Position numbers and translations under genes: made by a program. Below the pieces are notes generated by a model. That model ran no database searches. It saw nothing but the letters and a program-made list of their open reading frames with translations, and was not told the origin of the DNA. Positions 2,319 through 12,044 of a stretch of 64,000 nt of DNA are shown here, one piece after another. Position 1 is the first letter of the stretch, and every line of letters begins with the position of its first letter. The DNA comes from Tardiphaga sp. (lineage in GTDB: Bacteria > Pseudomonadota > Alphaproteobacteria > Rhizobiales > Xanthobacteraceae). The stretch is taken from NCBI GenBank assembly GCA_036561845.1, contig DATCUS010000223.1:7965-71964 (forward strand). The letters are read 5' to 3'.

Positions 2319-3080
2319 TCAGCTCTGCCCATCGAGCACGTAGCCGTATTTTTCGATAATGACGCGCGCTTCGGGTCCTCTGAGGAAGGCGATGAAACCC
2401 GTCGCGGCCTCGTTGCCGGCGCCGCTCTTCAACAGCACCGCGTCCTGGCGGATCGGCGCATAGAGCTCCTGCGGCACCACCCAGCGCGAACCGGTCTCGA
2501 TGCCGGTCAGCTGCGACAGCGCCACGAATCCCAGCTCGGCATTGCCGGTCTCGACGAACTGATAGGCTTGGGTGATGGTTGCGCCCTCGACGATTTTCGG
2601 CAGCAGCGCCTCGCGGAGCTTGAGCGACTCCATGGTCTGTACGGCTGCGGCCCCATAGGGCGCCGCCACCGGGTTGCAGATCGATAGTTTGGCGAAGCTC
2701 GCGGCCTTCAGCGTTTCCGCGCCTTTCACAAGGTTCGGCGTCTTGCTCCACAGCACCAGCCTGCCGATGGCGTAGGTGAAGCGGCTGTCCGACATGGCGA
2801 GACCGTCCTCGATCAGCTTCTTCGGGCGCGCTTCGTCTGCCGACAGGAAGACCTGAAACGGCGCACCCTGGGTGATCTGGCTGTAGAACTGGCCCGCCGA
2901 GCCAAAGCTCAGAACCGCATCGTGACCGGTCTTCTGCTTGAACGCCGCGGCGATCTCCCGGGCGGCGTCGGTGAAATTGGCGGCGACGGCCACGTTGGTC
3001 TGCGCGGTATAGGCGTGGCCGGAGGCCAGCAAAGCGAGCGCGACGCCGGTCAGGACTCGGAACGTCTGTCTGAAATGCAT
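2319..3080 (-). CDS. modA: Molybdate ABC transporter substrate-binding protein
   Basis: Signal peptide, VAVAANF, GSAGQFYSQITQGAPFQVFLSAD and APYGAAA motifs. Start trimmed to MHFRQTF. Confidence 0.92.
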   Translation of the reverse strand: MHFRQTFRVLTGVALALLASGHAYTAQTNVAVAANFTDAAREIAAAFKQKTGHDAVLSFGSAGQFYSQITQGAPFQVFLSADEARPKKLIEDGLAMSDSRFTYAIGRLVLWSKTPNLVKGAETLKAASFAKLSICNPVAAPYGAAAVQTMESLKLREALLPKIVEGATITQAYQFVETGNAELGFVALSQLTGIETGSRWVVPQELYAPIRQDAVLLKSGAGNEAATGFIAFLRGPEARVIIEKYGYVLDGQS

Positions 3081-3334
3081 TATGAACTCCCGCTCGTCGA
3101 CGATGATGACGCGAACCGCGCGAAGGCGACCCGCATGCATTGCCAGCAAGCCTCATGCCGTGTCGGGAATGGTGCGGTGCTTGCTTATTCGCGGCTACAG
3201 TCCTGTAATCTCCGGGCTGCCGCGGCGGGCCAGCGCCACGTTGGTGGAAAAGGCGACATTGATGTCATCAATCCAACATGACCGCGCGATGTCCGATGGC
3301 TGATGTCCGAGGTGAAGGCGCGGCCGGCCACGAA

Positions 3335-4210
3335 ATGAAGAGCAACGAGACAGGACCATCCATGCCGACCATCGCGTCCCGCGCCGATCTCGAGTCCCTG
3401 CTGCTCGACGACGTTCCCTATGGCGATCTGACGACCGATGCGTTGGGGGTCGGTTCTGCTCGCGCCGTCATGCAGTTCACGGCGCGCGATGCGATGGTGC
3501 TGGCGCTGGCCGAGGACGCCGCGGCAATCATCGAGATCGCCGGCGGCAAGGTTGATCTGCTGGCAGCGTCGGGCACGGTGCTGTCGCCGGGCGCGCCGAT
3601 CCTGATCGCGCACGGCCCCGCCGCGGCTTTGCTGCGCGGCTGGAAGGTGGCGCAGACGCTGATCGAGATCTGGTCCGGCGTGGCGACGGCAGCCCGCGGC
3701 ATCGTCGATGCCGCCAGCGCGGTGGCGCCGCAGATCGCGGTGGCCTGCACGCGCAAGACCATCCCGGGGACGAAGCGCTACGCCGTCGCCGCGGTGAAAG
3801 CGGGCGGCGCGGTGATGCACCGGCTCGGCCTGTCCGAGACGGTTCTGCTGTTTCCCGAACATCGCGCCTTTCTCGGCGACGAAGCGCTGGCATCCTTCGC
3901 CGATCGATTGCGGCGTGCTGCACCGGAAAAGAAGCTGGTGATCGAAGTCACCACTGTTGACGAAGCGGTCGCCGGCGCCGATGCGGGCTTCGACGTCATT
4001 CAGGCCGAGAAGTTCCTGCCCGCCCAGATCGCCGCGCTCGTCGCACGGCTGGCGTCCGCGCAACGGCGGCCGGTGATCGCCGCCGCCGGCGGGATCAACG
4101 TCGGAAACGCCGCGGCCTATGCGCAGGCCGGTGCCGATATCCTCGTCACCTCGTCGCCCTATCTGGCGCCGCCGCGGGATGTCCAGGTGCGGATCGGCCC
4201 GGCGGCCTGA
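3335..4210 (+). CDS. modD: ModD protein (NadC/quinolinate phosphoribosyltransferase-like)
   Basis: LLLDDVPYGDLTT, CTRKTIPG, HRLGLSETVLLFPEH and AAGGINVGNAAAYA. Start may be 3335 or 3362. Confidence 0.88.
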   Translation: MKSNETGPSMPTIASRADLESLLLDDVPYGDLTTDALGVGSARAVMQFTARDAMVLALAEDAAAIIEIAGGKVDLLAASGTVLSPGAPILIAHGPAAALLRGWKVAQTLIEIWSGVATAARGIVDAASAVAPQIAVACTRKTIPGTKRYAVAAVKAGGAVMHRLGLSETVLLFPEHRAFLGDEALASFADRLRRAAPEKKLVIEVTTVDEAVAGADAGFDVIQAEKFLPAQIAALVARLASAQRRPVIAAAGGINVGNAAAYAQAGADILVTSSPYLAPPRDVQVRIGPAA

Positions 4211-4225
4211 CGGCCGCCCGAATGC

Positions 4226-5095
4226 TTACAGGATCGACGCAAGAGACTGCCCGTGCATGTCGATGCTGAGGCCGTCGAGCGCCAGGTCGTCGAGTTCGCC
4301 GCCCATGGCCTTGATGCTTTCCTCGCGAATCAGCGACATCAGCCCGCGGCGCAATGCGAGGAATTCCGACGACATCATCATCGACTGCTGCCGCGGGCGC
4401 TCCAGCGGGATGGCGATCTCGGCCTTGATGGTGCCGGGCCGCGCCGTCATGCAATAAACCCGGTCCGACAGGAAGATCGCCTCGTCGATGTCGTGGGTGA
4501 CGAACAGCACCGAGATCTTCAGCCGCTGCCACATGTTGGTGAGGATCTGCTGCATGATCACCCGGGTCTGCGCGTCGAGCGCGCCGAACGGCTCGTCGAG
4601 CAGCAGGACCTTCGGCCCGGTGGCCAGCGCGCGGACGATGCCGACGCGCTGCTTCATGCCGCCGGACAGGCTGTCCGGATACTTGTTCTCGAACGCGGTG
4701 AGTCCGGCGAGGCCGAGCAAGGTGCGTGCGGCGCGGTCGCGGCTCGATCTGTCGAGGTGTTTCATCTTCAGGCCGAACTCGACATTGCCCTTCACCGTTT
4801 TCCAGGGAAACAGCGAGTACTGCTGGAACACCATGCCGCGGTCGGCGCTGGGGCCGTCGATGTCTTCGCCGTCGAGCGTGACCTCGCCCGCGGTTGGCTT
4901 GAGAAAGCCGGCGACGGCATTGAGCAGGGTCGACTTGCCGCAGCCGGACGGACCGACGATGGAGACGAACTCGCCGGGATTGACGTGGATCGATGCGTCG
5001 CAGACCGCTTCGACGGGGCCGTCGAGGGTGGGATAGCTCAATCCGAAATTGCGGACCTCGACGTGGCCGGTGGTCGGCGGGGATGATGCGATCAT
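4226..5095 (-). CDS. NitT/TauT-family ABC transporter ATP-binding subunit
   Basis: Walker A GPSGCGKST, signature LSGGMKQR, Walker B LLLDEPFGALD. ATGA overlap with the permease stop. Confidence 0.92.
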   Translation of the reverse strand: MIASSPPTTGHVEVRNFGLSYPTLDGPVEAVCDASIHVNPGEFVSIVGPSGCGKSTLLNAVAGFLKPTAGEVTLDGEDIDGPSADRGMVFQQYSLFPWKTVKGNVEFGLKMKHLDRSSRDRAARTLLGLAGLTAFENKYPDSLSGGMKQRVGIVRALATGPKVLLLDEPFGALDAQTRVIMQQILTNMWQRLKISVLFVTHDIDEAIFLSDRVYCMTARPGTIKAEIAIPLERPRQQSMMMSSEFLALRRGLMSLIREESIKAMGGELDDLALDGLSIDMHGQSLASIL

Positions 5096-5961
5096 TTGCG
5101 GTTCCATGGCATGAGAACGCGGCCCAGCCCGCGGATCAGTGCGCTCGATCCGAGGCCGAGGACGCCGATGCAGATCATGCCCAGCGCGATGTCAGCATAT
5201 TGCACCAGGGAATAGGCTTCCCAGGTGAAGTAGCCGATGCCGAACTGGCCGGAGATCATCTCGGCGGCGATCAGCGAGACCCATGCGACACCCATGCCGA
5301 CGGTGAGGCCGGTGAAGATGTGCGGCAGCGAGGCCGGGAAGTACACTTCACGGAAAATCGACAGTTCGCGTGCGCCGAGGCATTGCGAGGCCCGCACCAG
5401 CACCGGATCGACCAGCGACATGCCGTGCAGCGTGTTGACGAGGATTGGAAAGAACGCGCCGAGGAAGGTGATGTAGACGATGCTCTGCTCGTTGGTCGGC
5501 CACAGCATGATCGCCATCGGCACCCAGGCGATGGCCGGGATCGGGCGCAGCACTTCCGTGATAGGGAACACGAATTCGTGGATCAGCTTGAAGCGCCCCA
5601 TCACCAGGCCGAGGGGAACGGCGACGATCGCCGCCAGCGAAAAGCCGAGCAGGATGCGCCGGCAGCTCAGGATCACATGCATGAAGAACTTCGAATCATG
5701 CATCGCGCGCTGCAGGCTTTCATAGACCGCGGCGGGCGACGGCACGTTGGTAAAGCGAACGAAAAAAACGACCCGGTGGGTGGTGAGCAGATGCCACGCC
5801 GTCAGAAACAACAGCAGTGAGATAGTGCCGATCAGGGCGGTTCGCAGGCCGCCGCGGTTCACGAGAAACCAGCGCTTCAGATATAGCGCGGCTCCTGCTG
5901 GCGGTCGTCCCTGCGCCGCTGCCGGTGGTGGCGACCACGCGGCCGGATCGGGCAGCGTCAT
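5092..5961 (-). CDS. NitT/TauT-family ABC transporter permease
   Basis: Hydrophobic helices, LRPIPAIAW and an EAA-like loop (RASQCLGA). Start trimmed to MTLPDPAAW. Confidence 0.9.
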   Translation of the reverse strand: MTLPDPAAWSPPPAAAQGRPPAGAALYLKRWFLVNRGGLRTALIGTISLLLFLTAWHLLTTHRVVFFVRFTNVPSPAAVYESLQRAMHDSKFFMHVILSCRRILLGFSLAAIVAVPLGLVMGRFKLIHEFVFPITEVLRPIPAIAWVPMAIMLWPTNEQSIVYITFLGAFFPILVNTLHGMSLVDPVLVRASQCLGARELSIFREVYFPASLPHIFTGLTVGMGVAWVSLIAAEMISGQFGIGYFTWEAYSLVQYADIALGMICIGVLGLGSSALIRGLGRVLMPWNRK

Positions 5962-5998
5962 GGCCTGCCGCTCTTTTCGAATCGCGGAGCTTTCCACG

Positions 5999-7423
5999 TC
6001 AACCTCCACTGACTGCCGATTTGAGCGCGTCGTCGAAGCCGAGAACCTTGCCCTTGATCTTGACGGCATAGGCCTCGGCATCCTTCTTCAGCAGGAAGGG
6101 GGCGATATCGCTTTTGTCCGCGCCGACCGCGAAGAAGGCCTGGTCGGCGAACAGCTTGATGCCGCGGGCGGTGTCGAACACGTAAGCGACGTTGATCTTC
6201 TGCCCCCTGGCCTTCATGTCGGCGTAGGCGCCGAGCGTGCAGGCCGCGCTGCTGAACGGCTCGATGGCGCCGCCCTCGACCCAGACCTCGCCGGCCTTGC
6301 GCGGATCGGTGATCGGCTTCTTGCAGAACCTGTCCTCGCCCTTCACTTCGTAATTTTGCGTGCTCTTCAGCTGGGCGTCGTAGTCCATGTTGAGTTCGGC
6401 ATAGGCCTTGCGGATGTAGCTGTCGTCGACCCACTTCTTCGGGTCGAATTCCTTCATCCGGCCCAACGCCTGCAGCACCTTGACGTCGGTGGCCGCGGCG
6501 TCGATCAGCGCCGGCTTGATGGTCGGGTCGGTGGTCATGTTGCCGCCCGGGCCCAGGAAGATATAGACCACCTCCTTGTTGATGCCGGTCCATTCCTGGA
6601 TCTTCTCGGCGGCGAGCTTGGGATCGGCGCGCAGCCAGGCATTGGCGGCGATCACCGCCTTCAGATAGGCGACCACCACTTCAGGATATTTTTCGGCGAA
6701 GTCGGTGCGCACCACGACGCCATGCCAGGTCGGCAGGTTGGTCTCGACGCCATCGAAGATTTTTCGCGCGAAGCCGCGGAACGGAAGCAGTTCGGCGAAC
6801 GGCACGAAGTCGGCGTGCGCGTCGATCTTCTTTTCCTGCAGGTTGGTCGAGCCGACCTCCGGGCTCTGGCTGACCAGCTGGAAGTAGTCTGCCGGCCAGC
6901 CCTTGTCCTGCATGGCCTTCAGCACCATGCCATGCGCGGCCGAGCCGAACGGTACGCTGACCAGCTTGCCCTTGAGATCCGACAATTCGTAGTAGGGCGA
7001 GTCCTTGTGGACCACCATGCCATTGCCCGAACCGTCGAGACTATAGGCGGCCACCGCGATCAGCCGGCTCTTGCTTTCCGGATTACTCTCGAAGGTGAAG
7101 CCGTTCACCACCAGCGGATAGTCGCCCATGGCGCCGAACTGCAGCTTGTTGGCCATCATGCCGTTGGTCACCGGCGGGCCGGAGGTGAAGTTCTGCCATT
7201 CGTAGTCGAACTTGATGTTGGCGTATTTGCCGTCCTTCGGCAGATACTTGTCCATCAGCTTCAGCTGGCGGATGATCACCCCGGTGGTTGCCGTGTTGGT
7301 CGTGGTATCCTGGGTGCCGATTCCGATCGTCACTGTGGTTTGCGCATGCGCCTGACTGGCGATCAGCAGAGCCGCTCCGGCGCAGGCGCTGTAAAATGTA
7401 CGGTATCCCAAATTGCGAATCAT
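5999..7423 (-). CDS. Sulfonate/nitrate-type ABC substrate-binding protein with a C-terminal NosL-like extension
   Basis: Signal peptide, FTSGPP and VSVPFGSAAHG (SsuA/NMT1-like). At 474 aa it is about 130 aa longer than a plain SsuA. Confidence 0.85.
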   Translation of the reverse strand: MIRNLGYRTFYSACAGAALLIASQAHAQTTVTIGIGTQDTTTNTATTGVIIRQLKLMDKYLPKDGKYANIKFDYEWQNFTSGPPVTNGMMANKLQFGAMGDYPLVVNGFTFESNPESKSRLIAVAAYSLDGSGNGMVVHKDSPYYELSDLKGKLVSVPFGSAAHGMVLKAMQDKGWPADYFQLVSQSPEVGSTNLQEKKIDAHADFVPFAELLPFRGFARKIFDGVETNLPTWHGVVVRTDFAEKYPEVVVAYLKAVIAANAWLRADPKLAAEKIQEWTGINKEVVYIFLGPGGNMTTDPTIKPALIDAAATDVKVLQALGRMKEFDPKKWVDDSYIRKAYAELNMDYDAQLKSTQNYEVKGEDRFCKKPITDPRKAGEVWVEGGAIEPFSSAACTLGAYADMKARGQKINVAYVFDTARGIKLFADQAFFAVGADKSDIAPFLLKKDAEAYAVKIKGKVLGFDDALKSAVSGG

Positions 7424-7606: not shown

Positions 7607-8389
7607 TCAATCGCCCTGGCCCTTCATCTCCTGCAGCAGGTCGGGACGGCGCACGATGATGTGGGACTTTCGCGAGCTGACGATATCCTTGTCCTGCATG
7701 CGCTTCAGGCTGATGGTCACCCACTGGCGGGTGGCGCCGACCATGTGGGCGAGATCGGCGTGGGTGAATGCCGAGCCGATCAGGATGCCTTCGGGATCTT
7801 CCACACCGTAGAGTTCGACCAGATGCAGCAGCAGGTGCGCCAGCCGTTCGGTGATCGAGCGGGTGCCGAGCATCTGCGCCAGCGCCGAGTAGCATTTGCC
7901 CTTGAACGTCAGTCCCTCGATCAGGCCGATGGCGAGATTGGGTACCTCGACCACCAGCGCCCGCAACTCATGGCCGGGGAGCTGCACCACGCTGCTGTTG
8001 CTGGTGGCGACGCCGGACCACTGATGCACGCCGGCGCCGAACACTTCCGGGCCGCCGACGAAATTGCCGGGATGCCAGTAGGCAAGGGTGATCTCGCGTG
8101 CCGAGGGCGCGGTGTAGAACACCCGGATGCGACCCGTCTCGATCAGATAGATACCATCGTGCTTCGCGCCCTGGTTGAACAGGGTCTGCCCGCGGTACAG
8201 CACCTTGCGACGGCCGTGCTTGAGCACGGTTTCGCGCTCACGCAGCGAGAGCGCATCGAACAGCGACGGCGCGCCGCCCAGCGAACGTGCGCTTTCCGTC
8301 AGCAACAGGGATTGTCCGCTGATCGATGCTGGTCGCGTCGGCTTGACGGCCGCGCCGGACGGCGCAGTGGTGGCTGCTAAAAGCTGCAT
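7607..8389 (-). CDS. Crp/Fnr family transcriptional regulator
   Basis: cNMP-like beta-roll and HTH (THADLAHMVGATRQWVTISL). No Fnr Cys cluster and no canonical cAMP-binding Arg motif. Confidence 0.9.
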   Translation of the reverse strand: MQLLAATTAPSGAAVKPTRPASISGQSLLLTESARSLGGAPSLFDALSLRERETVLKHGRRKVLYRGQTLFNQGAKHDGIYLIETGRIRVFYTAPSAREITLAYWHPGNFVGGPEVFGAGVHQWSGVATSNSSVVQLPGHELRALVVEVPNLAIGLIEGLTFKGKCYSALAQMLGTRSITERLAHLLLHLVELYGVEDPEGILIGSAFTHADLAHMVGATRQWVTISLKRMQDKDIVSSRKSHIIVRRPDLLQEMKGQGD

Positions 8390-8498: not shown

Positions 8499-8846
8499 TC
8501 AATCATGCGCGGCGCCCGGTTCGCGCCGGCCGAGGCTCAGCAGCAGCGCCCATGGATAGATGCCGCGCGCGTGACCATCCGAGAAGGCGATGTTGAGCGC
8601 GTAACCGCCGATCGGCGACACCTCGGTGATCGCAAGGCCCGCGAACTGTTCGGGAAACACGCCATCGATGCGGGCGCGCAGGCAATGCGCGCATTTGCAT
8701 GCGCTGCGCAGGCGCTCGGCGCTTATCCGGACGCGGACATCATCCGGGAAGGCGAGATCGAGACACCGCAGGTCGTCGCTGACCGCAATGCCCCGCGGGG
8801 CCGCGATGATCCTTGCCAAGGTGGACGGTGCCGCGGTCTGGGTCAT
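8499..8846 (-). CDS. DUF971 / GBBH-like N-terminal domain protein
   Basis: LRSACKCAHC (CxCxxC) and GGYALNIAFSDGHARGIYPW signature. Confidence 0.88.
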   Translation of the reverse strand: MTQTAAPSTLARIIAAPRGIAVSDDLRCLDLAFPDDVRVRISAERLRSACKCAHCLRARIDGVFPEQFAGLAITEVSPIGGYALNIAFSDGHARGIYPWALLLSLGRREPGAAHD

Positions 8847-8893
8847 GCATCGATCTCCGCACACATGTCATCATCTGCAGCCGTGTTCGCCCA

Positions 8894-9054: not shown

Positions 9055-10797
9055 ATGGCCATGGACGACATTATCGACGGTCTTTCCGAAGTGTCCTGCG
9101 ATGTTCTGGTGATTGGCGGCGGCACCGCCGGGCCGATGGCGGCGCTCAAGGCCAAGCTGAAAAATCCCAAGGCGAACGTGGTGCTGCTGGAGAAGGCCAA
9201 CGTCAAGCGCTCCGGCGCGATCTCCATGGGCATGGACGGTCTCAACAACGCGGTGATCCCCGGCTACGCCACGCCCGAGCAATACACCAAGGAAATCACC
9301 ATCGCCAATGACGGCATCGTCGACCAGAAGGCGGTCTACAAATACGCCGAGAAATGCTACTCGATCATCGAGGAGCTCGACAGCTTCGGCATCCGCTTCC
9401 TGAAGAACGAGAACGGCGACTATGCCGTCAAGAAGGTGCATCACATCGGCACCTATGTGCTGCCGATGCCCAATGGCGAGACCGTCAAGAAGGCGCTGTA
9501 CCGGCAGTTGCGGCGTGCGCGCATCCTGATCTCCAACCGTTACATGGCGACGCGGCTGCTGACCGGGAAAGACGGTCGCATCGCCGGCGCCATCAGCGTC
9601 AACACCCGCACCGCGGAAATCCTGGTGATCAAGGCCAAGGCGGTGATCCTGTGCATGGGCGCCGCCGGCCGGCTCGGCCTGCCGACCTCGGGCTATATGT
9701 TCGGCACTTACGAGAACGCCGCGAATTCCGGCGACGGCTACGCCATGGCCTATCATGCGGGCGCGGCGCTCGCGAACCTCGAATGCTTCCAGATCAATCC
9801 GCTGATCAAGGACTACAACGGCCCGGCCTGCGCCTATGTGGCCGGTCCCTACGGCGCCTTCACGGCCAACAACGAGGGCGCGCGGTTCATCGAATGCGAC
9901 TACTGGTCCGGCCAGATGATGCTGGAATTCTATAACGAGCTGCAGTCCGGCAAGGGGCCGGTGTTCCTGCAGCTCAACCATCTGCACGAAGACACCATCA
10001 GCGAGATCGAAACCACCCTGCACAAGGTGGAGCGGCCGACGCGTGGTCTGTTCCATGAAGGGCGTACCACGGACTATCGCCAGGAACCGATCGAGATGCA
10101 CATCTCGGAAATCGGCTTCTGCTCCGGCCACAGCGCGTCGGGCGTGTTCGTCGATGAATTCGCCCGCACCACCGTGCCCGGCCTCTACGCCGCCGGCGAC
10201 ATGGCCAGCGTACCGCACAACTACATGCTCGGCGCCTTTACCAACGGCTCGGTGGCCGGCGAACATGCGATGGACTATGCCGACAATGTCGACTTCGCCG
10301 ATTTCGACGCCGCCGATGTCGCCAGGGAGCGCGATCGCGTGATGGCGCCGACGAAGCGCGAGGATGGCATTCCGCCGAACCAGATCGAGTACAAGGCGCG
10401 CCGCCTGGTCAACGACTATCTGCAGCCACCAAAGGTCAGCCGCAAGTTCGAGATCGGCCAGAAGCGGCTCGGTGAGGTGCGCGAGGACATGGAAACGCGG
10501 ATGATCGCGCGCAACTCCCATGAGTTGCTGCGCGCGCTGGAAACCCAGTCGATCGTCGACTGCGCCGACATGGCAGCGCATGCCTCGCTCTATCGCACCG
10601 AGAGCCGTTGGGGCCTCTACCACCTGCGCACCGATTATCCCGAGAAGAACGACGAGGACTGGTTCTGCCATACCCTGCTGAGCAAGAAGGATGGCCGGAT
10701 GAGCAGCGAGAAGCGCGCGGTCGAACCCTATATCGTGCCGATCGCCGACGACGAGAAGGATCTCTATGACAAGCAGCGCATCCGCGCCAGCGCCTGA
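9055..10797 (+). CDS. AprA/AsfA-like flavoprotein (fumarate reductase/succinate dehydrogenase flavoprotein superfamily)
   Basis: VLVIGGGTAG FAD motif, KRSGAISMGMDGLN (AprA-like ERSGAV), GLYAAGD, RTESRWGLYH. Confidence 0.88.
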   Translation: MAMDDIIDGLSEVSCDVLVIGGGTAGPMAALKAKLKNPKANVVLLEKANVKRSGAISMGMDGLNNAVIPGYATPEQYTKEITIANDGIVDQKAVYKYAEKCYSIIEELDSFGIRFLKNENGDYAVKKVHHIGTYVLPMPNGETVKKALYRQLRRARILISNRYMATRLLTGKDGRIAGAISVNTRTAEILVIKAKAVILCMGAAGRLGLPTSGYMFGTYENAANSGDGYAMAYHAGAALANLECFQINPLIKDYNGPACAYVAGPYGAFTANNEGARFIECDYWSGQMMLEFYNELQSGKGPVFLQLNHLHEDTISEIETTLHKVERPTRGLFHEGRTTDYRQEPIEMHISEIGFCSGHSASGVFVDEFARTTVPGLYAAGDMASVPHNYMLGAFTNGSVAGEHAMDYADNVDFADFDAADVARERDRVMAPTKREDGIPPNQIEYKARRLVNDYLQPPKVSRKFEIGQKRLGEVREDMETRMIARNSHELLRALETQSIVDCADMAAHASLYRTESRWGLYHLRTDYPEKNDEDWFCHTLLSKKDGRMSSEKRAVEPYIVPIADDEKDLYDKQRIRASA

Positions 10798-10832: not shown

Positions 10833-11066
10833 ATGCCTCTCGCAAGTTATCAAACATCCGTTCCGGTGGTCGTCGACGATGCCAAGTGCATCGCCGACAA
10901 GGGCTGCACGGTCTGCGTCGACGTCTGTCCGCTCGACGTGCTGCGGATCAGCGACATGACCGGCAAGGCGTTCATGGCCTATGACGAATGCTGGTACTGC
11001 ATGCCGTGCGAGGCGGATTGCCCGACCGGCGCCGTCAAGGTCAACATTCCCTATTTGCTGAGGTGA
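10833..11066 (+). CDS. 2[4Fe-4S] ferredoxin (AprB/AsfB-like)
   Basis: CIADKGCTVCVDVCP and ECWYCMPCEADCP clusters. Confidence 0.92.
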   Translation: MPLASYQTSVPVVVDDAKCIADKGCTVCVDVCPLDVLRISDMTGKAFMAYDECWYCMPCEADCPTGAVKVNIPYLLR

Positions 11067-11069
11067 CGC

Positions 11070-12044
11070 ATGGCAGATCCGTTCGAATCCTATGACGACC
11101 TGGACGACGTCGACGACCGCCTGAATGCCGCCGATCCCGGCGAGCGCCGTGTCGCCATCATCGCGCTCGGCCATTCCGGCGATCCGGCGGCCGTGGAGCA
11201 TCTCGACCGCATGACCGCAGATCCGGACGCCGGCGTTCGCCAGCAGGTGGCGCTGGCGCTCGGCGAGTTCGACGGGCCCGAGGCCGCTGCCGCCTTGGTG
11301 AAGGTCGTGGTCGATCCGGAGCAGGCGGTGGCAAACGCCGCGGCCGATGCCATGGCCGAGCTGAAGGATCCGGCGAGCGCCGATGCGATCCTGCCGCTGG
11401 TCGGCCACGCCCACGCTTTCGTGCGCATGGCGGCGCTGCGCGCCTTGAAGGAGTTGCGGCGCAAGGACTCGCTGAAGCCGGCTCTCGACGCGCTGCAGGA
11501 CGTGGATGCATCCGTGCGCGTGCAGGCCATCGGGGTCATCGGTTTTCTCAAGCTGGAAGAGGCGATCCCGGCGCTGACCGCGGCGACGGCCGATGCCGAT
11601 GCCCATGTGCGTCGCGCCGCGGTCAGCGCGCTGGCGTTTTCCCACATGAAGTCCGCCGCGGAATCCATCACCCGTGCGCTGACGGACGCCGACTGGATGG
11701 TGCGGGAGATTGCCGCCGAGACCCTCGGCAGCAACGTCAACGGCGTGCAGGCCGCCGATGCGCTGATCAAGGCCACGACCGATGAATTCTGGCAGGTGCG
11801 GCTGAAGGCGGTACGCAGCCTTGGCAGGATGCGGATCGCGCGCGCCGTGCCGGCGATCGGCGCCTGTATCGCGCATCAGCAGGCCAATCTGCGCAAGGAG
11901 GGCGCGGCGGCGCTGGGCGAGATTGCGGACCCCGCCGGCCAACAGTTCCTTACGCCGATCATGGATGACCCGGATCCGGAAGTCCGCAAGAACGCCCGCT
12001 GGGCAATGCAGAAGATCCTGTCGAACAGCGCCGCCTCAGGTTGA
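11070..12044 (+). CDS. HEAT-repeat (PBS lyase-like) protein
   Basis: Repeated DxDxxVRxxAxxALG units along the whole length. Starts 3 bp after the ferredoxin stop. Confidence 0.9.
   Translation: MADPFESYDDLDDVDDRLNAADPGERRVAIIALGHSGDPAAVEHLDRMTADPDAGVRQQVALALGEFDGPEAAAALVKVVVDPEQAVANAAADAMAELKDPASADAILPLVGHAHAFVRMAALRALKELRRKDSLKPALDALQDVDASVRVQAIGVIGFLKLEEAIPALTAATADADAHVRRAAVSALAFSHMKSAAESITRALTDADWMVREIAAETLGSNVNGVQAADALIKATTDEFWQVRLKAVRSLGRMRIARAVPAIGACIAHQQANLRKEGAAALGEIADPAGQQFLTPIMDDPDPEVRKNARWAMQKILSNSAASG

Follow-up and report, generated by a model that had tools for sequence, protein, structure and literature searches.

The stretch of DNA analysed here comes from Tardiphaga sp. (assembly GCA_036561845.1, contig DATCUS010000223.1, positions 7,965 to 71,964 of the forward strand) and is called the window at its full length of 64,000 nucleotides. 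It encodes a substrate-binding protein (SBP; P0001) of a NitT/TauT-type ATP-binding cassette (ABC) importer, in which an exported SsuA/TauA-like two-lobe core is followed by a C-terminal region assigned to the NosL family by profile comparison (Table 1). The earlier note on this DNA, made from the letters alone, had described a solute-binding protein fused to a NosL/MerB-like, possibly metal-binding domain with two cysteines. Its coordinates were exact, as residue 363 is encoded at nucleotides 6335-6337 and the stop codon lies at 5999-6001, and the peptides that it quoted (EDRFCKKPITDPRKAGEVW..., FSSAACTLGAY, AYVFDTARGIKLFADQAFFAVG and APFLLKKDAEAYAVKIKGKVLGFDDAL) were all found exactly in the 474-residue translation. 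The mature protein has just two cysteines, Cys367 and Cys395, both in the C-terminal domain, and a third, Cys14, lies in the signal peptide and is removed on export. The permease and ATPase genes follow the binding-protein gene, the Crp/Fnr regulator and DUF971 genes precede it, and the genes for a flavoprotein, a ferredoxin and a HEAT-repeat protein are divergent. The permease open reading frame as listed overlaps the binding-protein gene, and translation probably starts from the ATG at 5961 instead.

Table 1. Features of the importer locus, with positions in the window. Locus counts refer to 84 related loci carrying the binding protein, in which the flavoprotein and ferredoxin were counted within 9 kb. 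pLDDT, predicted local distance difference test; FAD, flavin adenine dinucleotide.
Feature	Position	Strand	Evidence
Substrate-binding protein gene (P0001), NitT/TauT-type ABC importer, 474 aa	5999..7423	-	open reading frame, translation, Pfam NMT1 and NosL
Sec-type signal peptide, residues 1-27, predicted cleavage between …LIASQAHA and QTT	7343..7423	-	sequence; low pLDDT of residues 1-25
SsuA/TauA-like two-lobe binding core, residues 28-355	6359..7342	-	phmmer/hmmsearch alignments to TauA 6ssy
C-terminal NosL-like domain, residues 363-474	6002..6337	-	PF05573, PDB profile, hhalign, DSSP of AlphaFold2 model
Cys367 codon, position of NosL Cys62 (Cys of the C-x-M motif)	6323..6325	-	alignments
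Cys395 codon, position of NosL Asp92; probable disulfide partner of Cys367	6239..6241	-	alignments
ABC permease (BPD_transp_1)	5092..6081	-	PF00528, 85 bits; NCBIfam ntrB/SaoP/TauC-like, all below cut-off
ABC ATPase	4226..5107	-	PF00005, 119 bits; SaoA/ntrCD/TauB-like
Crp/Fnr-family regulator adjoining the binding-protein gene	7607..8389	-	cNMP_binding and HTH_Crp_2; in 82/84 loci
DUF971/GBBH-like_N protein	8499..8864	-	PF06155, 66 bits; in 77/84 loci
AprA/AsfA-like FAD flavoprotein	9055..10797	+	NF006131, 1075 bits; 65-94% identical in 79/84 loci
77-aa 2x[4Fe-4S] ferredoxin, flavoprotein partner	10833..11066	+	Fer4_7 and related; in 79/84 loci
HEAT-repeat protein	11070..12044	+	HEAT_2, 173 bits; in 77/84 loci

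Homology of the C-terminal domain to NosL

Pfam recognised an NMT1/SsuA-like region at residues 128-269 and NosL (PF05573) at residues 374-467. The PF05573 score was 24.5 bits for the whole protein, against a curated cut-off (GA) of 24 bits, and rose to 29.3 bits (E = 1.2e-6) for a scan restricted to the last 113 residues. A phmmer search with the last 120 residues against 1.84 billion representatives returned 158 clusters, nearly all of them full-length proteins of about 470 residues or their fragments, and among them one canonical NosL of 145 residues with the C-x-x-C-x-M motif (P0264). A profile was then built from 39 C-terminal domains with canonical NosL excluded, and 32 of its 39 members matched PF05573 individually. 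Searched against all PDB sequences, this profile matched NosL chains only (7og7 with E = 3e-6, followed by 2hpu, 7osf and 7znq), and hhalign aligned it with the canonical NosL of the same genome over 102 columns with a probability of 95.3% and E = 2.2e-8. A profile of the full-length sequence matched TauA/SsuA over positions 27-292 and NosL 7og7 over 357-465. When 401 Pseudomonadota genomes were searched, the scores were bimodal: 13 genomes gave more than 100 bits in frames of at least 466 residues, which is the fused form, and 34 genomes gave 27-46 bits, mostly in frames of about 160-270 residues corresponding to standalone NosLs. Pfam, the PDB profile and hhalign thus agree on a NosL-family domain of about 110 residues fused to an SsuA/TauA-like solute-binding protein, as the earlier note had proposed, and the profile comparisons confirmed residues 363-474 as homologous to NosL, a true but degenerate descendant of it.

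The name MerB, which the earlier note had joined to NosL, did not fare as well. The 39-domain profile matched none of the MerB chains in PDB at E <= 10, and the catalytic triad of MerB (Cys96, Asp99 and Cys159) was not alignable with the domain. The link to MerB rests only on the published similarity of the NosL and MerB folds.

An AlphaFold2 model was built on a 107-row alignment covering three clades of the family and had a pLDDT of 92.7 and a predicted template modelling score (pTM) of 0.90. The linker and C-terminal domain reached a pLDDT of 94-98, which suggests rigid packing. In the model, the domain consists of an N-terminal arm (residues 363-377) followed by two beta-beta-alpha-beta units, which DSSP placed at strands 378-382 and 387-390, helix 393-405 and strand 410-416 for the first unit, and strands 430-433 and 440-443, helix 446-455 and strand 459-461 for the second, with a final helix after them. 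This order of secondary-structure elements agrees with the arrangement described for NosL (PMC8457098). Foldseek with the whole model found TauA (6ssy, E = 2e-20, TMt 0.81) and SsuA (3uif, 3ksx and 2x26; TMt 0.84 for 3ksx); its top 50 were binding proteins only, and hence the search was uninformative for the C-terminal domain.

It was also considered that the C-terminal region might be an ordinary extension of the binding protein, as in NrtA/CmpA, or a chance Pfam match, given that the whole-protein Pfam score lies just 0.5 bit over the cut-off and that clades B and C (defined below) carry no precomputed PF05573 label. However, four independent profile tests point to NosL and the order of secondary-structure elements agrees with it. 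We regard this explanation as very improbable, and it was refuted by the PDB profile, the alignment to the genome's own NosL and the 401-genome search. A further candidate, selenocysteine, was rejected as well, since the TGA inside the domain of one relative (genome G020) is a normal stop codon.

Loss of the metal-ligand set and covariation of the cysteine pair

In NosL from S. denitrificans (SdNosL), Cu(I) is bound by Cys62, Met64 and Met145, which are strictly conserved and essential, and Zn is bound in a subset of NosL proteins, in SdNosL by Cys59, Cys62, Cys88 and Asp92 (PMC8457098). In our alignments, Cys59 is replaced by Phe366, Met64 by Lys369 and Cys88 by Ser391, Cys62 corresponds to Cys367, and Asp92 corresponds to Cys395, a position that also holds Cys in the 'swapped' clade-II-type NosL, including the canonical P0264. 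The loop with Met145 is deleted (…VGADKSDIAPF, where the NosL of the same genome reads …ESRKQGGMGAAEAVPF). Of the three Cu ligands, only Cys367 therefore survives, two of four Zn-site positions hold a thiol, and the Met64 and Met145 equivalents are missing in every clade. The own nosL of the Tardiphaga genome lies on another contig; its product has a lipobox, scores 162 bits on PF05573 and keeps F-C-G-M and the G-G-M-G loop. It stands in an accessory row (L086, contig C186:13119-16517) of the nosF-nosY-nosL-nosX-like type, with genes for an ABC ATPase, a nosY-like ABC-2 permease, the lipoprotein NosL and an ApbE/NosX-like protein. Because these canonical nos accessory genes are present elsewhere in the genome, the organism already owns a dedicated copper chaperone of the NosL family.

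Three clades of full-length relatives were compared: clade A with Bradyrhizobium, Rhodopseudomonas and Tardiphaga (n = 119), clade B with Acinetobacter, Paraburkholderia and Moraxellaceae (n = 116), and clade C with metagenomic alpha- and gammaproteobacteria (n = 119). Both Cys367 and Cys395 were present in 119/119 members of clade A, in 0/116 of clade B and in 0/119 of clade C, although the 235 members of clades B and C share the same fusion architecture and gene context; proteins of this kind lacking the cysteines occur in Acinetobacter, in Cupriavidus, as a paralogue on a Bradyrhizobium plasmid and in metagenomic clade C. In a 55-sequence alignment of the domain, no complete, unfragmented sequence had just one of the two cysteines. 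The pair is kept down to about 30% identity to the query (P0177, P0219 and P0235) and is missing in P0154, P0160 and P0163, a group that otherwise resembles clade A. When the sole two cysteines of an exported protein come and go together, a disulfide is the usual explanation, and that reading is favoured here. The Cys367 and Cys395 positions share one zinc ion in NosL and therefore should be close in space, and the authors of the NosL structure stated that, when zinc is absent, these cysteines tend to form disulfides (PMC8457098). Of the possible metal-binding domain with two cysteines proposed earlier, the count of exactly two cysteines held, whereas a working metal site was not borne out, as the ligand set is mostly lost and the cysteines are absent in the sister clades.

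Residues 366-377, the whole arm that bears the C-x-x-C-x-M motif in NosL, are deleted in clade C. Clades A, B and C all conserve seven residues (Trp381, Tyr414, Asp417, Lys423, Ala429, Phe443 and Ala449), and five of these, the exceptions being Trp381 and Lys423, belong to motifs that NosL also has, e.g., YVxD. Between clade A and clades B/C, the domain was 31-37% identical and the core 47-49%; between clades B and C the values were 27% and 40%. The domain thus diverges faster than the core yet is retained, with the ancestral ligand arm variable or deleted.

The binding core and the importer-reductase module

The core scored below the cut-off of both NCBIfam models considered (TIGR01728 SsuA_fam, 115.8 bits vs 163.5; TIGR01729, 62.1 bits vs 304). 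In TauA, the sulfonate ligands are Gln30, Gly61, Gly79 and Thr132, with the backbone amides of Gly61, Gly79 and Ser/Thr132 holding the sulfonate (PMC6906117). The phmmer alignment to TauA placed Gly82, Gly100 and Ser161/Ala162 on Gly61, Gly79 and Ser/Thr132, respectively. Gln38, in a stretch outside the alignment, is probably the counterpart of Gln30, and Gly82, Ser161 and Gln38 are invariant in 107 sequences. The protein belongs to a separate NitT/TauT lineage, which would most likely bind a sulfonate-type oxyanion. An invariant A-H-A-D-F-x-P motif (His203 and Asp205; window 6809-6817) and a near-invariant His234 (window 6722-6724) were observed at the specificity residues Leu204/Asp205 of TauA. 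His203, Asp205 and His234 are without counterpart in TauA and SsuA; the substrate, or a metal, bound by this lineage of binding proteins may depend on them.

The flavoprotein scored 284 bits on the model of the adenosine 5'-phosphosulfate (APS) reductase alpha subunit, which is below the cut-off. The same gene set with a binding protein of about 475 residues was found on a Methylobacterium plasmid, on a Bradyrhizobium plasmid, in Acinetobacter baumannii, in Cupriavidus pinatubonensis and on clade C contigs, and among those loci the regulator is either of the Crp/Fnr type or of the GntR type, the latter with a LysR gene in the vicinity. Relatives are encoded in at least 579 stretches of the species-representative genome collection. 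Among the Pseudomonadota sampled, about 3-4% have the module; Bradyrhizobium, Methylobacterium, Burkholderia/Paraburkholderia, Cupriavidus and Acinetobacter are among them. Of the 15 genomes in the 401-genome sample that bear the flavoprotein, 13 also have the fused form, with the two a few kb apart in 12 of the 13, and no genome had the fused domain without the flavoprotein. The two others belong to one family. In one of them (G283, L095:9528-13832), a plain NMT1-type binding protein of 330 residues without the fused domain follows DUF971, and in the second (G075, L094:7545-11004) no binding protein lies within 10 kb of the flavoprotein module. The fusion is therefore the dominant, not the obligatory, form of binding protein in the module. 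In G075, a DUF899 gene and a gene for a PpoB2 'copper chaperone' membrane protein were observed about 4.3-6 kb from the DUF971 gene.

Several further arrangements were seen. In Xanthobacter (L071-L073 and L077), the unit of regulator, binding protein, permease and ATPase stands apart from the flavoprotein genes, and in G048 the importer unit and the flavoprotein genes are about 2.9 Mb apart on one contig. On pMRAD01 of Methylobacterium radiotolerans (L001:11086-12217), fdxA and a ferredoxin-NADP reductase (FNR) gene come directly after the importer genes; an electron route from NADPH through FNR and FdxA to the small ferredoxin and the AprA-like flavoprotein is suggested. In P0212, a metagenomic protein of 779 residues, a hydrophobic segment with a lipobox at its end (…VFVLGGC) connects the HEAT protein to the binding protein. 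This protein was rejected as a sign of cytoplasmic location: the segment is an internal lipoprotein signal, and P0212 is either a fusion anchored in the membrane or a gene call that has read through. A molybdenum link was rejected as well. The genes modA (minus strand) and modD (plus strand), which abut the operon here (window 2319-4210), were found in 0/84 related loci and are neighbours by lineage accident.

Clade C differs in its gene content. Extra genes were present in the importer operons of four of the five clade C contexts examined (L090:8196-15634, L091:7200-13712, L092:8001-13346 and L093:8001-13314). All four of these loci encode an unannotated membrane protein of about 225 residues with a Cys-Cys motif (VVCCATPSW) and a c-type cytochrome, three of the four encode SCO1/SenC, two a TlpA-like redoxin and one PCuAC. 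Of the clade C binding proteins, 110 of 119 have another cysteine pair, one Cys in each lobe bordering the cleft, where P0001 has Thr41 and Val207; P0211 of this clade is without that pair, and its operon is without the added genes.

Role of the domain and comparison with known systems

Considering all the above results, we propose that the C-terminal domain would act as a fixed, rigidly packed accessory scaffold, that is, a buttress or docking surface, which is stapled by a disulfide in clade A and is not a metal carrier; this proposal is held with moderate confidence. The exported binding protein would serve the NitT/TauT-type importer of the conserved flavoprotein/ferredoxin/HEAT/DUF971 module, with its N-terminal 330 residues forming an SsuA/TauA-like clamp that would keep the backbone and Ser positions for a sulfonate-type oxyanion. 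The C-terminal residues, about 110 in number, would keep the two beta-beta-alpha-beta units of NosL with the Cu(I) ligand set gone, and a Cys367-Cys395 disulfide, formed in the oxidising periplasm, would most likely pin the N-terminal arm to the domain core. A scaffold is favoured because the domain diverges faster than the core, the ligand arm is variable or deleted and the invariant residues are mostly those of motifs shared with NosL. Several observations weigh against it. Cys367 stands at the one strictly conserved cysteine of NosL, and a two-thiolate Cu(I) or Zn site is possible in clade A. Trp381 and Lys423, the invariants specific to this family, could line a ligand site instead of an interface. 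The covariation of the cysteines is partly a clade-level signal, and the domain appears dispensable to the module because the G283 variant has a plain binding protein of 330 residues. Finally, the SCO1, PCuAC and cytochrome c genes in some clade C operons keep copper/thiol chemistry possible, and with it the periplasmic processing of the substrate that the earlier note had also suggested may still occur.

The proposal of the earlier note, in which Cys367 and Cys395 of clade A would bind two-coordinate Cu(I) or Zn as a residual site and the domain would serve as a built-in metallochaperone or in metal-dependent capture, draws on the alignment of Cys367 with the NosL cysteine that bridges Cu and Zn, on Cys395 at the Zn-ligand position 92, which is Cys in the 'swapped' NosL types, on the retention of the pair across deep divergence and on the SCO1 and PCuAC genes within the same operon in relatives. 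Nevertheless, we consider such a site unlikely, as Met64 and Met145, which are essential for Cu transfer in SdNosL, are absent from every clade, all 235 clade B and C members with the same module lack both cysteines, the arm is deleted in clade C, and an exposed periplasmic cysteine pair is expected to oxidise. A similarly low weight is given to an extension of the ligand pocket, in which the domain would lie over the cleft and hold the non-sulfonate part of a bulky substrate, as the MerB fold holds an organic ligand, with contacts from Trp381, Asp417 and Lys423. Trp381 and Lys423 are indeed invariant in three clades, unlike in canonical NosL, the domain should sit at a defined place on the core given the high pTM, and 13 of the 15 flavoprotein-bearing genomes have the fused form; against this, conservation is lower in the domain than in the core, the N-terminal arm that forms the ligand site in NosL varies or has been lost, and a variant of the module with a plain SBP exists.

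Chemistry at the thiols was considered in two forms. Before uptake, redox-active Cys367/Cys395 could undergo thiol-disulfide exchange in the periplasm with a sulfur substrate, e.g., a thiosulfonate or an S-sulfo compound. Homology links the module to sulfur, and the cleft pair of clade C (positions 41 and 207) co-occurs with the Cys-Cys membrane protein, SCO1 and cytochrome c. However, the domain has no CxxC or thioredoxin-like geometry, the clade A operon encodes no redox partner and clade B is without any cysteine pair, and this exchange is judged improbable. Also unlikely is a wider version in which the importer would handle a sulfur compound that needs periplasmic thiolate/copper chemistry before uptake, provided by Cys367/Cys395 in the Bradyrhizobium-type clade and by the cleft pair in clade C, where SCO1, PCuAC, cytochrome c and the Cys-Cys membrane protein would service it. 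If true, this would be the first case of a metallochaperone-type reactive site within an ABC binding protein itself, and a functional residual cysteine pair would indicate periplasmic pre-processing of a sulfur nutrient.

The ligand loss also bears on annotation. The domain is already visible in databases, where the Pfam pair PF09084 and PF05573 is precomputed on many relatives and two records are named "nitrous oxide reductase accessory protein NosL", and the fusion is a variant of a known domain family. We found no paper in the literature that describes the SBP-NosL fusion or the domain structure of AsfC, and no phenotype data for the module. Since the copper ligands are missing from this NosL fold, labels assigned automatically, such as "NosL accessory protein", should be treated with caution. 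The domain offers a clean sequence signature for this lineage of binding proteins and, on the reading favoured here, would illustrate how a metallochaperone fold can come to serve as a scaffold, and most copies of the widespread, uncharacterised importer-reductase module have the fused protein as their binding protein.

Among known systems, NosL (7OG7 from S. denitrificans and 2HPU from A. cycloclastes) shares with the domain its profile homology over about 100 residues, the order of units as seen in the model, the periplasmic location, the cysteine at position 62 and the YVxD, AxFxV, PF and GGxV motifs. In contrast to NosL, which is an 18-kDa standalone lipoprotein, the domain is fused to a Sec-exported binding protein, is without Met64, the Met145 loop, Cys59 and Cys88, and can dispense with its cysteines in the sister clades; the fusion gene lies outside the nos cluster, in a genome with a separate canonical nosL. 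Likeness to the organomercurial lyase MerB extends to the published fold similarity only. TauA and SsuA (6SSY, 2X26 and 3E4R; NitT/TauT) have the same fold over the N-terminal 330 residues, with Foldseek E values down to 2e-20, and the positions aligned with Gly61, Gly79 and Thr132 appear to be kept, in an operon with a matching permease and ATPase. Unlike them, the present protein shows only about 20% identity, NCBIfam scores below cut-off, the AHADF(V/C)P motif, His234 in the cleft region and the extra C-terminal domain.

The asfRABC arylsulfonate cluster of Pseudomonas putida S-313 encodes the reductase AsfA, the ferredoxin AsfB and the binding protein AsfC (PMC4267179, PMC2864759). It is required for growth on arylsulfonates and differs from the module described here in its LysR-type regulator AsfR, in place of Crp/Fnr, and the present module has HEAT and DUF971 genes in addition. 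Both systems encode a flavoprotein, a small ferredoxin and an SsuA-like binding protein together (AsfC being compared by its description), and in Acinetobacter and Cupriavidus the order of flavoprotein, ferredoxin and binding protein is the same as in asfRABC.

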